Shown: one piece after another, positions 3,004 through 13,451 of the stretch | How the letters are laid out: every line of letters begins with the position of its first letter | How positions within the stretch are numbered: the stretch's first letter is position 1 | Virus record (IMG/VR): IMGVR_UViG_2565956627_000012 | DNA: 13,451 nucleotides | Reading direction: 5' to 3' (one strand) | Origin: a virus | Taxonomy: Duplodnaviria > Heunggongvirae > Uroviricota > Caudoviricetes | Translations under genes and position numbers: made by a program | Notes under the pieces: generated by a model | What the model saw: the letters and a program-made list of their open reading frames with translations, nothing else | Database searches by the model: none | Told to the model about the DNA's origin: nothing

Positions 3004-3303
3004 ATGAAAAATAAAAATTCTGGCGTTACTGCCAGCGGCCCCGCTCGTCCTGAATTTATGAACGGCGATATTTACCGCGATAAATATGGCGGCATGGTAA
3101 CGATTAAAGGCGTGGCAGAACGGCGCATCACCTACCGCCGTGAAGGCTACGAATATGATTGCGTGATGCCTGTTTATCAGTTTCGGCGTGATTTTTCTCT
3201 GGTACAGGCAGCGCCCCGCAGTAAACCAACCAGCAGGGAGAAAGCACGCGCCAATATTCAGGAAATAAAAAAGATGCTTAACGTATTCAGGGGTAAAAAA
3301 TGA
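3004..3303 (+). CDS. Hypothetical protein (99 aa) immediately upstream of, and coupled to, the primase gene
   Basis: ATG at 3004 follows the upstream stop by 5 nt. Its stop overlaps the primase start (ATGA at 3300). Basic C-terminus. Confidence 0.5.
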   Translation: MKNKNSGVTASGPARPEFMNGDIYRDKYGGMVTIKGVAERRITYRREGYEYDCVMPVYQFRRDFSLVQAAPRSKPTSREKARANIQEIKKMLNVFRGKK

Positions 3304-5048
3304 AACTGGCACCGAACGTAAAAAAACAGCCACGCGGAATAAAACACAAAGACACAGAGGTAATTATTTTCGCGGGTAGTGATGCCTGGTCGCACGCGAA
3401 ACAATGGCAGGAGCAGGATGGCCCCGCATCCGGCGATAATGTGCCGCCTGTGTGGCTTGGGCCAAATCAGCTTGCCGAACTTGATGCGCTGAAAATTGTT
3501 CCGGATGGGAAAAAACGCGTAAGGCTGTACCAGGCCGGAGAACTGGATTTAGTGGAGACCAAAAAGATCGGTCAGAAGCTGGCGGCGGCAGATATTCAGG
3601 ATGCGAATTTTTACCCCGAAGGGGTGCACGGACAGAAATGTGAGAACTGGCGGCGCTATCTGAATGCTGAGCGTGAAAATATTGCCGCAGGGATCACCAT
3701 GCCGGAACAGAAAAAATCACAACTTTCACAGATGGCAGACAGTGAACGGGCACAGCTTCTTGCTTCCCGCTTTGATGGTGTCTGCGTCCATGCAGAAAGT
3801 GAAATCGTTCACGTATGGCGTGACGGGGTATGGTGTCCGGTCAGCACAATGGAACTGAGCCGCGAAATGGTGGCGGTTTATTCAGAACACGGGGCCACGT
3901 TCAGCAAGCGTGCAATTAATAACGCCGTTGAAGCGTTAAAAGTTATTGCTCAGCCAATGGGGGAGCCGTCCGGTGATTTGCTGCCGTTTGCCAATGGTGC
4001 GCTTGACCTGAGAACAGGGGAATTTTCCTCTCACCAGCCGGATAACTGGATCACCACACACAACGGCATTGAGTACACGCCGCCAGTACCAGGTGAGAAT
4101 ATCCGCGACAACGCGCCAAACTTTCATAAATGGCTTGATCACGCTGCCGGAAAAGACCCGGGCAAGATGATGCGCATATGTGCCGCGCTATACATGATTA
4201 TGGCGAACCGGTACGACTGGCAGATGTTTATTGAGGCCACCGGAGACGGCGGGAGCGGCAAGAGCACTTTCACGCACATAGCCAGCCTTCTGGCAGGGAA
4301 ACAGAACACCGTAAGCGCTGAGATGACATCACTCGATGATGCTGGTGGGCGTGCGCAGGTTGTCGGAAGTCGGCTTATTGTCCTGGCAGACCAGCCGAAA
4401 TATACAGGCGAAGGCACGGGCATCAAGAAAATCACGGGCGGCGACCCTGTGGAGATTAACCCGAAATATGAAAAGCGATTCACGACCATAATCAGGGCTG
4501 TGGTACTGGCGACCAACAACAACCCGATGATATTCACGGAACGGGCCGGAGGCGTGTCACGTCGTCGCGTGATTTTCCGTTTCGACAATATCGTCAGTGA
4601 GGCCGAAAAAGACAGAGAACTACCGGAAAAAATCGCGGCTGAAATCCCCGTCATTATCCGCCGCTTGCTGGCGAACTTTGCCAATCCTGAAAAGGCACGG
4701 GCTTTACTGATTGAGCAGCGTGACGGTGATGAAGCACTGGCAATAAAGCAACAGACGGATCCGGTTATTGAATTTTGCCAGTTCCTTAACTTTCTGGAAG
4801 AAGCACGCGGCCTGATGATGGGCGGCGGCGGTGACTCTTCCAGGTACACGACCAGAAACAGCCTTTACCGCGTCTATCTGGCGTTTATGGCGTATGTCGG
4901 CAGGAACAAGCCGCTGAACGTGGCTGAGTTCAGCAAAGCTATGAAGCCAGCGGCGAAAGTTTACGGACATGAATATATAACGCGCAGGATTAAAGGGATT
5001 ACGCAAACCAACGTGACAACAACAGACGACTGCGACGCGTTTTTATAA
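3300..5048 (+). CDS. Replication protein: primase / SF3-type helicase (phage-plasmid primase, P4-family-like C-terminal domain)
   Basis: 582 aa. Walker A P-loop 'GDGGSGKST' lies in the central/C-terminal part, and a Walker B-like 'RLIVLADQ' follows. Size and position (after alpA, before an iteron array) match satellite replication-initiator (Pri-Rep) genes. Confidence 0.85.
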   Translation: MKLAPNVKKQPRGIKHKDTEVIIFAGSDAWSHAKQWQEQDGPASGDNVPPVWLGPNQLAELDALKIVPDGKKRVRLYQAGELDLVETKKIGQKLAAADIQDANFYPEGVHGQKCENWRRYLNAERENIAAGITMPEQKKSQLSQMADSERAQLLASRFDGVCVHAESEIVHVWRDGVWCPVSTMELSREMVAVYSEHGATFSKRAINNAVEALKVIAQPMGEPSGDLLPFANGALDLRTGEFSSHQPDNWITTHNGIEYTPPVPGENIRDNAPNFHKWLDHAAGKDPGKMMRICAALYMIMANRYDWQMFIEATGDGGSGKSTFTHIASLLAGKQNTVSAEMTSLDDAGGRAQVVGSRLIVLADQPKYTGEGTGIKKITGGDPVEINPKYEKRFTTIIRAVVLATNNNPMIFTERAGGVSRRRVIFRFDNIVSEAEKDRELPEKIAAEIPVIIRRLLANFANPEKARALLIEQRDGDEALAIKQQTDPVIEFCQFLNFLEEARGLMMGGGGDSSRYTTRNSLYRVYLAFMAYVGRNKPLNVAEFSKAMKPAAKVYGHEYITRRIKGITQTNVTTTDDCDAFL

Positions 5049-5056
5049 TTTTAGAC

Positions 5057-5289
5057 AAAAGCCCTCTACCTCTTCTACCTTAAGAAAATAATTGCATATA
5101 TTTCATATGGATAGTTTTGGTAGATGGCAGGTAGAAGGCACTTAAAAGCCCTCTACACCCTCTACCATAATTCAGGGCATTTGTGAGGGGGTGGTAGATG
5201 ACAGGTAGAGGGCCAAAAAAGCCCTCTACCCCGCTGGAAACCGCGCCATTACTGACCTGAAAGATGATTAGGTAGAGAGGTAGAGGAGG
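5057..5289. repeat. Iteron array / putative origin of replication
   Basis: About 11 copies of the core CCTCTACC / GGTAGAGG in both orientations. Three copies of AAAAGCCCTCTAC(C/A) start at 5057, 5145 and 5217. Two copies of GGTAGATG(G/A)CAGGTAGA(A/G)GG sit at 5119-5138 and 5193-5212. An AT-rich block lies at 5081-5118. The array is directly downstream of the primase/helicase gene. Confidence 0.6.
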
Positions 5290-5334
5290 TGCACCACAAC
5301 CCAAAACTTTTTAAACACGAGGGTAAAAATAAAA

Positions 5335-5592
5335 ATGCACACTACAGAAAAACTTAACAATCAGAAGAAACCACACTACCGCGCTATTGACCTTACAGAG
5401 CACTGGCTGAGAGTGGCGATAAAAATCATCGACCGCAACACGGGGGAAGGATATGCGAAAGCACATCCTGAACTAATAAGCGCATTCATGACCACAGCGG
5501 CGGCAAACTTTGCCACGCTGACAGAACGGGAGATTGCCGAAGCGGAACAGGTAACAACCATCAACGTTAAAACCGGAGAGGTGGAATCATGA
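5335..5592 (+). CDS. Hypothetical protein (85 aa)
   Basis: ATG at 5335 with GAGGG upstream. Its stop overlaps the SSB-like start (ATGA). No recognisable motif. Confidence 0.5.
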   Translation: MHTTEKLNNQKKPHYRAIDLTEHWLRVAIKIIDRNTGEGYAKAHPELISAFMTTAAANFATLTEREIAEAEQVTTINVKTGEVES

Positions 5593-5999
5593 CAGCACAG
5601 ATAGCCGCTTACGGGCGGCTGGTGGCTGACCCGCAGTTAAAGACCACCAGCAAGGGCACACAAATGGCTATGGCAAGCATGGCGGTCCCCCTGCCGTGCA
5701 ATCAGGCAGATGACGGACAGGCGACGATGTGGTTATCCGTCCTGGCGTTTGGCAGACAGGCCGACGCACTGGCAAAACACCACAAAGGCGAGCTGGTGAG
5801 CGTGGCGGGTAACATGCAGGTAAGCCAGTGGACAGGCCAGAACGGCGAAACGCGGCAGGGCTGGCAGGTTATTGCAGACAGCGTAATCAGTGCCAGAACG
5901 GCGCGACCTGGTGGGAGCCGACGCAAGACCACAGGCACACAGGGTAATCAGCCACCAGCGGGAGGCGATGACCCTTACGGTGATGATATTCCGTTCTGA
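5589..5999 (+). CDS. ssb: Single-stranded DNA-binding protein (short SSB-like, OB-fold with acidic C-terminal tip)
   Basis: 136 aa. The N-terminus 'IAAYGRLVADPQLKTT...MAMASMAV' parallels the SSB OB-fold start. A Gly/Pro-rich linker 'RPGGSRRKTTGTQGNQPPAGG' is followed by the hallmark SSB tail 'DDPYGDDIPF' at the extreme C-terminus. Confidence 0.7.
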   Translation: MTAQIAAYGRLVADPQLKTTSKGTQMAMASMAVPLPCNQADDGQATMWLSVLAFGRQADALAKHHKGELVSVAGNMQVSQWTGQNGETRQGWQVIADSVISARTARPGGSRRKTTGTQGNQPPAGGDDPYGDDIPF

Positions 6000-6009
6000 G
6001 AGGGTGACG

Positions 6010-6267
6010 ATGGTACATGACCGCATAGCGGAAGAACTCGAGGCGAAAGGCTTTTACCGGAGAGCGTCGGCGCGATGGGGTGAAGTCATGCTACTGGTGG
6101 AGACAGACAAGGAACGGGAGCACATCACGATGCGACGGCTGGAATGTTGCAGAAAATCGACAAGGCCAGCACTCGGGCCGGACAATTTCAGCGATATTAA
6201 AAAAGCCGCTGATCGTGTTTATGCTGAAATGGGATTAGATAAATTAAAGGGGGAAACATGCCAGTAA
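6010..6267 (+). CDS. Small regulator-like protein, possibly PerC-family transcriptional activator
   Basis: 85 aa from the ATG at 6010, with GAGAGGG upstream. 'IAEELEAKGFYRRASARWGEVM...DKEREHITMRRLEC' resembles, from memory, the conserved core of PerC/Pch-like prophage regulators. Not verified by search. Confidence 0.4.
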   Translation: MVHDRIAEELEAKGFYRRASARWGEVMLLVETDKEREHITMRRLECCRKSTRPALGPDNFSDIKKAADRVYAEMGLDKLKGETCQ

Positions 6268-13161: not shown

Positions 13162-13451
13162 CGAGAATGAGCGAAACCGAACTACTAAAAATAATCCGCC
13201 GTGTTACCGGAGCCAGCCAGACAGCAGACAAACAGGAGGCCACGCAGCCGGACAGCGTGATAGCCGAAAATTACGCGCGTGTGGTGGCTGAGGTGATGCG
13301 CCGTGACGGTATTGAGCTTAACGGCGTGGATATGCGCAACATACGAACCAGAGTCCTTGAGTTGCTGGCATACCGTCGCCGTTCTCAACAACGGAGGGAG
13401 AGCGCGAAAAATACTTATCAGTGGAAGAAGCCGGAACGGTTGCGGCGGTAA
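13158..13451 (+). CDS. Hypothetical protein (97 aa) translationally coupled to terL
   Basis: ATG at 13158 overlaps the terL stop (ATGA); an alternative ATG lies at 13167. The stop TAA is the last three bases of the window. Basic C-terminus; no recognisable motif. Confidence 0.45.
   Translation: MTRMSETELLKIIRRVTGASQTADKQEATQPDSVIAENYARVVAEVMRRDGIELNGVDMRNIRTRVLELLAYRRRSQQRRESAKNTYQWKKPERLRR

Follow-up and report, generated by a model that had tools for sequence, protein, structure and literature searches.

A compact iteron array directly 3′ of rep as the probable replication origin of a putative enterobacterial capsid-forming island

The IMG/VR virus record IMGVR_UViG_2565956627_000012, a stretch of 13,451 nucleotides that was analyzed as a whole (here termed the window), carries all of its large open reading frames (ORFs) on the plus strand. 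The genes int (1-1239), alpA (1562-1858), a DUF4222 gene (3004-3303), and rep (3300-5048) are followed by a gap of 286 bp (5049-5334), after which come an ORF of 85 codons and the genes for SSB and PerC. Further downstream are genes for an HK97-type capsid protein, an S78 protease, a portal, a head completion protein, a connector, an HNH protein, TerS, and TerL. This gene set is that of a capsid-forming phage-inducible chromosomal island (cf-PICI), and the window probably represents such an element from enterobacteria. The gap contains a dense array of short repeats, or iterons, which an initial inspection of the nucleotide sequence (the sequence-only reading) had proposed as a candidate island origin. 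Our analysis supports this proposal: with a probability of roughly 0.9, the gap is the vegetative replication origin of the island, and its array is homologous, in position as well as sequence, to the experimentally tested ori of EcCICFT073, a PICI of Escherichia coli CFT073.

The octamer GGTAGAGG, with at most one mismatch allowed, occurred 19 times in the window compared to 5.6 ± 2.2 times in dinucleotide shuffles, none of which (0 of 200) attained that number. Eleven of the 19 octamers fell in 5063-5286 and represented both orientations (Table 1), in agreement with the earlier count of about 11 cores. The exact hexamer GGTAGA/TCTACC was found 11 times, with 10 copies in the 233-bp stretch 5057-5289 and a single exact copy in the other 13.2 kb; at the background rate of the shuffles, finding 10 or more hexamers in 233 bp has a Poisson probability of ∼6e-20. 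Neither the octamer nor the hexamer counts revealed a second iteron cluster elsewhere in the 13.4-kb window. The array begins 15 nt past the stop codon of rep, its iterons follow the orientation order << >> << >> < >>, and direct neighbors are spaced by 9, 11, 9, 11, and 8 bp, or approximately one helical turn. Superimposed on the iterons are larger repeats, including AAAAGCCCTCTAC in three copies at 5057, 5144, and 5217 (repeat family D2) and TGGTAGATGRCAGGTAGARGGC in two copies at 5118 and 5192 (family D1), both of which had been noted at the outset, along with additional repeats that we designate families D4 and D5. Three higher-order units are thereby discernible, namely A (5057-5139), B (5144-5213), and C (5217-5289), each of which has AAAAGCCCTCTAC at its start and a direct GGTAGA pair at its end. 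Iteron pair 4 and the single iteron make up a perfect head-to-head palindrome of 10 bp, interrupted by a gap of 7 nt. The A+T-rich block that had been reported for this region was likewise found and separates iteron pairs 1 and 2.

Table 1. Coordinates of rep and of the elements in the gap that follows it. Positions refer to the window unless another locus is named (L091, EcCICFT073; L092, P4). aa, amino acids; nt, nucleotides; SF3, superfamily 3; RBS, ribosome-binding site.
Feature	Position	Strand	Description
rep (pri-rep)	3300-5048	+	Cognate initiator; Pfam D5_N, DUF5906, Pox_D5
Rep domains			Toprim-like, aa 1 to ~130; D5_N, aa 151-281; SF3 helicase P-loop DUF5906, aa 314-415; origin-binding, aa 486-577 (nt 4755-5030)
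Iteron pair 1	5063-5079	-	Octamers at 5063 and 5072; CCTCTACC, CTTCTACC; spacing 9 bp; left of the A+T-rich block; cores near-invariant in 66 relatives
A+T-rich spacer	5081-5117		37 bp; 81% A+T compared to 49% for the window; between iteron pairs 1 and 2
Iteron pair 2	5119-5137	+	Octamers at 5119 and 5130; GGTAGATG, GGTAGAAG; spacing 11 bp; right of the A+T-rich block
Iteron pair 3	5150-5166	-	Octamers at 5150 and 5159; CCTCTACA (imperfect), CCTCTACC; spacing 9 bp; opens unit B
Iteron pair 4	5193-5211	+	Octamers at 5193 and 5204; GGTAGATG, GGTAGAGG; spacing 11 bp; closes unit B
Single iteron	5223-5230	-	Octamer at 5223; CCTCTACC; opens unit C
Conserved non-iteron block	5235-5254		TGGAAACCGCGCCATTACTG then AC; within unit C
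Iteron pair 5	5271-5286	+	Octamers at 5271 and 5279; GGTAGAGA, GGTAGAGG; spacing 8 bp; closes unit C
A/T tract (A4CT5)	5302-5311		AAAACTTTTT; 15 nt past the last iteron pair; invariant in 66 close relatives
A/T tract sites	5302-5311; L091 6555-6564; L009 ~3508-3516; L010 ~3093-3102; L092 (P4) ~4297-4310 and ~4479-4493		
RBS (GAGGG) and start codon of the 85-aa ORF (5335-5592)	5320-5337	+	Right limit of the noncoding region

The gap is orthologous to a tested locus in EcCICFT073 (NC_004431, 1377749-1389210; L091), the Pri-Rep of which is 87% identical to the window Rep. The intergenic gap is 288 bp in EcCICFT073 compared to 286 bp here, and although the nucleotide identity of the two gaps is just 64.6%, each contains eleven TCTACC-core iterons that match in number, order, orientation, and position. 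Also common to both are the A+T-rich spacer after the first pair, the CCGCGCCATTACTG block, and the AAAACTTTTTAAAC tract. The islands differ in the iteron flank and the corresponding Rep residues (CC-N-TCTACC with AEFS here versus CT-R-TCTACC with NDFG in EcCICFT073), in the second iteron pair (a true direct pair here versus a single iteron followed by a T-run), and in their morphogenesis genes, which are capsid-forming here (HK97-type capsid, protease, portal, and terminase) and of another set in EcCICFT073. In the published experiments, a pri-ori fragment of EcCICFT073 maintained a thermosensitive plasmid at the restrictive temperature, whereas the Δpri and Δori versions did not (Fillol-Salom et al. 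2018; PMC6092414). By mapping the published primers, we found that the Δori fragment reaches as far as the stop codon of rep (L091 6300) and that the ori fragment continues to ∼24 nt inside the next ORF (∼L091 6608); the deletion thus took out the intergenic region, and the tested EcCICFT073 ori corresponds to positions ∼5052-5358 of the window. A literature search with the iteron strings returned nothing relevant, the published iteron sequences standing in a figure.

Conservation of the locus was assessed in both close and distant relatives. Of 5426 complete E. coli genomes, 1578 (∼29%) contained a relative of a 1-kb segment around the gap (best identity of 93.5%), with up to six places per genome matching the rep/array module. 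A scan of viral contigs yielded 80 further loci (Rep identity of 86-98%), and a contig scan with the single Rep protein yielded three loci, two of which were informative distant ones. Among 66 distinct intergenic sequences, the mean column entropy was 0.25 bits for the iteron cores and 0.72 bits for all remaining columns within 5057-5289 (Mann-Whitney p = 9e-10). The most variable pair among the relatives was pair 2, which in the EcCICFT073 type is reduced to one copy and then a T-run. Rep relatives of 52% identity from Serratia aquatilis and Morganella morganii were followed by the same layout directly past the stop codon, i.e., an iteron pair, an A+T-rich spacer of ∼36-38 bp, iterons of alternating orientation, and a terminal direct pair. 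The iterons themselves were TGTTCAC in Serratia (nine copies) and TGTTCAT in Morganella (11 copies in the array and 12 in the locus), and in each case 0 of 200 shuffles attained the count. Rep is the sole conserved neighbor of these arrays, as the DUF4222 gene, the downstream ORF, and ssb are not conserved there. The iteron sequence varies with the initiator: TCTACC in two subtypes for the E. coli types, TGTTCAC for Serratia, TGTTCAT for Morganella, and TGTTCACC for P4. These comparative data support a protein-binding array that would be read by the adjacent Rep, the pattern being the one expected of initiator-binding sites.

Residues 139-577 of the Rep protein align to residues 324-762 of the P4 α protein with 40% identity over 440 residues (E = 9e-112), a region that encompasses the helicase and the origin-binding domain. 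More specifically, residues 486-577 resemble the solved origin-binding domain of P4 α (1KA8; E = 1.7e-7), and residues 224-430 resemble the PriRep5 helicase of SaPI5 (7OLA; E = 2.7e-13), an S. aureus (Staphylococcus aureus) pathogenicity island (SaPI). TIGR01613 matched Rep with 104.7 bits, slightly below its cut-off of 108.7. No P4-type primase domain was found in Rep; its N-terminal 138 residues have a Toprim-like fold with no conserved DxD motif. The adjacent gene had been described as a primase/helicase, and of this description the helicase part is well supported, together with an origin-binding domain, while the primase part is not. The Rep proteins of SaPIs have been described as helicases that load themselves and that read iterons located just 3′ of rep through a winged-helix C terminus (PMC9371898).

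Several elements of the gap are distinct from the iterons. The A+T-rich spacer is presumed to be a DNA unwinding element; spacers similar in length and place occur in EcCICFT073, Serratia, and Morganella, and one of 35 bp is found in the P4 ori. The non-iteron blocks 5235-5254 and 5302-5311 are as conserved as the iterons within the E. coli-type family, and the former is kept across that family yet not in Serratia or Morganella. With these elements included, the functional region probably extends to ∼5311, beyond the previously assigned limits of 5057-5289. For the A4CT5 tract we can offer guesses, such as a bend, a helicase-loading site, or an unwinding site. A tract of the form A4-8(N)T4-6 was also seen 8 to 17 nt past the terminal direct pair in this island, EcCICFT073, Serratia, Morganella, and both P4 crr repeats. 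As a separate observation, the 8-mer CATTACTG of block 5235-5254 also recurs next to one of the type-1 iterons of the P4 ori (L092 9341-9348), which may be due to chance. We considered whether a second copy of CGCGCCATT in the downstream ORF (window 5380-5388, a partial match, CGCGCTATT) was a partner site and rejected this candidate, since only 19 of the 76 distinct relatives had the copy, which followed the ORF allele and is probably coincidental.

Scans for host-factor sites were negative. The best match to a DnaA box had two mismatches and was not conserved, with none found within one mismatch, and searches for the IHF consensus and for GATC yielded no convincing site. The array has a single-stranded DNA folding z-score of −5.6, but this value is a trivial outcome of inverted iterons and does not separate the models.

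On the basis of these features, we envision the following sequence of events. After induction, Rep would bind the eleven iterons of 8 to 9 bp (consensus YCNTCTACC) by way of its P4-α-type C-terminal origin-binding domain. The iterons form direct pairs on the same face of the helix, 8 to 11 bp apart, that are set as the three inverted-pair units A, B, and C. The 37-bp A+T-rich block lies inside unit A and is presumed to be the site at which the duplex melts and the SF3 helicase of Rep loads itself without DnaA, DnaB, or DnaC. Units B and C together with the A4CT5 tract, which are like the P4 crr in position and layout, would probably provide extra Rep-loading or enhancer sites. We infer from this analogy that the PICI array may join ori-like and crr-like units in one compact region. 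A more elaborate version of this scheme, which we consider speculative and rather unlikely in its entirety, holds that the array is a fusion of P4 elements (unit A as ori; units B and C plus the tract as crr), that Rep has exchanged the P4 primase for a small modular Toprim-like domain lacking the conserved catalytic acids, with priming left to host DnaG or to an undescribed mechanism, and that an AE-S/ND-G switch of two to three residues, together with C or T at position −2 of the iteron flank, defines Rep/ori specificity classes. If true, such classes would permit several islands per cell. Two loci from the same IMG genome (2703718778; L020 and L084) were of differing subtypes, AEFS/CC-type and NDFG/CT-type; this co-residence hints at specificity classes that allow a shared cell, although a single same-genome pair is anecdotal.

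Several considerations weigh against the assignment of the gap as the origin. Rep-dependent autonomous replication has been demonstrated for EcCICFT073 only (PMC6092414) and would extend to the present allele by orthology; moreover, the published Δori deletion of EcCICFT073 lowered but did not eliminate colony formation (PMC6092414). The P4 element at the same position as the array, crr, is not itself the initiation site. A Rep with no recognizable active primase domain would leave the priming step unaccounted for. The A+T-rich block is off-center, with two iterons to its left and nine to its right, unlike the "approximately central" location in the SaPI description, and the two conserved non-iteron blocks are unexplained by Rep binding. 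Within the close family, Rep with A[E/D]FS was paired with YC-N-TCTACC and Rep with NDFG was paired with CT-R-TCTACC in 67 of 68 distinct combinations, but these represent essentially two linked haplotype clades and not independent events, which makes the association suggestive at most. The exception, a natural hybrid (L050), has an AEFS Rep with CT-R-type iterons and appears to have recombined within the origin-binding domain.

Among the alternatives to an origin, one that we regard as very improbable is that the array is a cis-acting enhancer of the P4 crr kind; Rep would bind it, but replication would start from a distinct ori in another part of the island. The P4 precedent lends it some weight because the element directly 3′ of α is crr and the ori is ∼4.5 kb off, and units B and C as well as the terminal iteron pair with its A/T tract do resemble crr repeats. 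However, the octamer and hexamer counts identified one cluster in the window (the far right end of the island lies outside it), unit A shares the structure of the P4 ori (iterons, a ∼37-bp A+T-rich spacer, and iterons), and EcCICFT073 rep plus the orthologous segment was alone sufficient for replication (PMC6092414). The single cluster and the plasmid result argue against a purely crr-like role.

Still less probable is that the array serves mainly in transcriptional control, either as operators through which Rep would regulate its own expression or by supplying a promoter or an attenuator to the orf85-ssb-perC-morphogenesis genes. Initiators frequently act as repressors too, the array is situated between two codirectional gene blocks, and the invariant sequence 5302-5334 adjoins the RBS of the next ORF. 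Against this, promoter and terminator scans gave nothing beyond shuffle expectation and no terminator in the gap, the one promoter-like site (9 of 12 positions; 5142-5171) was not conserved in EcCICFT073, and an Rfam scan of 4900-5500 detected no family at threshold (a sub-threshold chance match, Termite-leu, scored 17.8 versus 51 bits). In addition, Serratia and Morganella retain the array and Rep but not the downstream genes. A transcriptional role would be compatible with origin function. We also observed a perfect TATAAT at 5044-5049 that shares bases with the stop codon of rep and does not vary among the relatives; no usable −35 element was found at 17 ± 1 bp from it, and its conservation is explained by the protein sequence encoded there (...DAFL*), which makes a promoter at this site improbable.

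The possibility that the repeats lie within a real small gene is negligible: the minus-strand ORF 5080-5304 (74 codons with a TTG start) exists in the window but was intact in the same frame in just 2 of the 66 distinct relatives, being mostly disrupted in the others by frameshifting length changes or early stops (the stop was missing in five and four codons early in two), the Prokaryotic Genome Annotation Pipeline placed no coding sequence in the gap at any of nine related E. coli loci examined while annotating the equivalent of ORF 5335-5592, and conservation tracks the iteron cores rather than codons. These comparative data refute the coding hypothesis and bear out the initial view that the stretch is noncoding and the ORF an artefact of the repeats; a conserved protein-coding region, named at that time as an outcome contrary to an origin, was not what the relatives revealed.

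Additional features of the island and its relatives were noted. The cf-PICI backbone and the capsid/terminase set were read up to the end of the window at 13451, and the CE10 relative stops after terL and one small ORF. The ORF at 1870-2778 (302 residues) has a C-terminal Icd-like cell-division-inhibitor domain (NF033153; residues 254-297), and relatives have two or three small Icd-like genes annotated individually in this region. The mechanically called PerC ORF (GTG start; 5890-6267) overlaps ssb (5589-5999) by 110 nt; the true start of perC is probably near 6010, since relatives annotate perC just after ssb. The annotated start of the ORF downstream of the gap lies ∼60 nt later in some relatives (L004 and L005), giving gaps of up to 350 bp. 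Natural variants include one locus without the rep stop codon, which reads into the origin (L025), and one with IS1 inserted in rep (L007).

The origin described here belongs to a class that is already known and tested, that of the PICI ori of the Gram-negative EcCICFT073 type with a P4-α/SaPI-Rep mechanism. EcCICFT073, a close relative, had already provided a described and tested example of this origin type, which makes the finding correct but ordinary. A satellite origin was recognizable to a reader from raw sequence, and the anatomy of this allele, including its iterons, unwinding block, and extra conserved elements, helps to annotate many cf-PICIs of E. coli and Shigella.

Comparison to satellite phage P4 highlights both shared and divergent features. 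In each case, 8-bp iterons in both orientations, including direct pairs (9 to 10 bp apart in P4), form an array of ∼300 bp located 3′ of the initiator gene. According to the P4 record, crr is directly 3′ of α and consists of a 120-bp repeat present twice, with five type-1 iterons of mixed orientation per copy. Each crr repeat ends in a direct iteron pair with an A8(C)T6 tract 8 to 10 nt on, for which the window equivalent is the pair at 5271-5286 followed by AAAACTTTTT, and the P4 ori, in which a 35-bp A+T-rich spacer separates an iteron from an iteron pair, resembles unit A. The P4 ori is ∼4.5 kb from crr, whereas here one compact array stands in place of two distant loci; the bipartite arrangement was not encountered in the single cluster of the 13.4-kb window, which ends at 13451. 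P4 also has a terminator between α and crr, with none seen here in the terminator scan, and its α protein includes a 323-residue primase part that is not in Rep. The P4 iteron is TGTTCACC rather than TCTACC, and the Serratia TGTTCAC is close to TGTTCACC.

The resemblance to SaPI origins is one of layout. The ori elements of SaPIbov1, SaPI1, and SaPI5 are directly 3′ of rep and contain 6 to 12 short iterons (PMC9371898 and references 28 and 29 therein), and an A+T-rich region is flanked on either side by at least two of them, with orientations that differ between the two sides; the window likewise has 5063/5072(−) and 5119/5130(+). The three-unit organization and the A/T tract found here are not known from the SaPI description (PMC9371898). 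Like the window Rep, SaPI Rep combines an SF3-type helicase, with a similar helicase core (7OLA), and a C-terminal DNA-binding domain. The SaPI lineage is Gram-positive and has no DNA similarity to the window, however, and the C-terminal domain here is P4-α-like (1KA8).

Iteron plasmids such as pSC101, F, R6K, RK2, and P1 have iterons of 17 to 22 bp in tandem and in the same orientation, which are bound by winged-helix initiators of the RepA family, and they use DnaA boxes and the host DnaB and DnaC. Plasmid iteron origins and the window share repeated initiator sites beside an A+T-rich region and the initiator gene. Unlike the plasmid RepA type (17-22 bp; RepA, π, or TrfA), the array here has iterons of 8 to 9 bp that face both ways, an SF3 helicase as its initiator, and no DnaA box within one mismatch. 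The sequence-only reading had likened the array to a classic iteron-type origin read by the adjacent initiator; the origin and its adjacent Rep are retained from that description, and the plasmid-type layout gives way to that of PICIs and P4.
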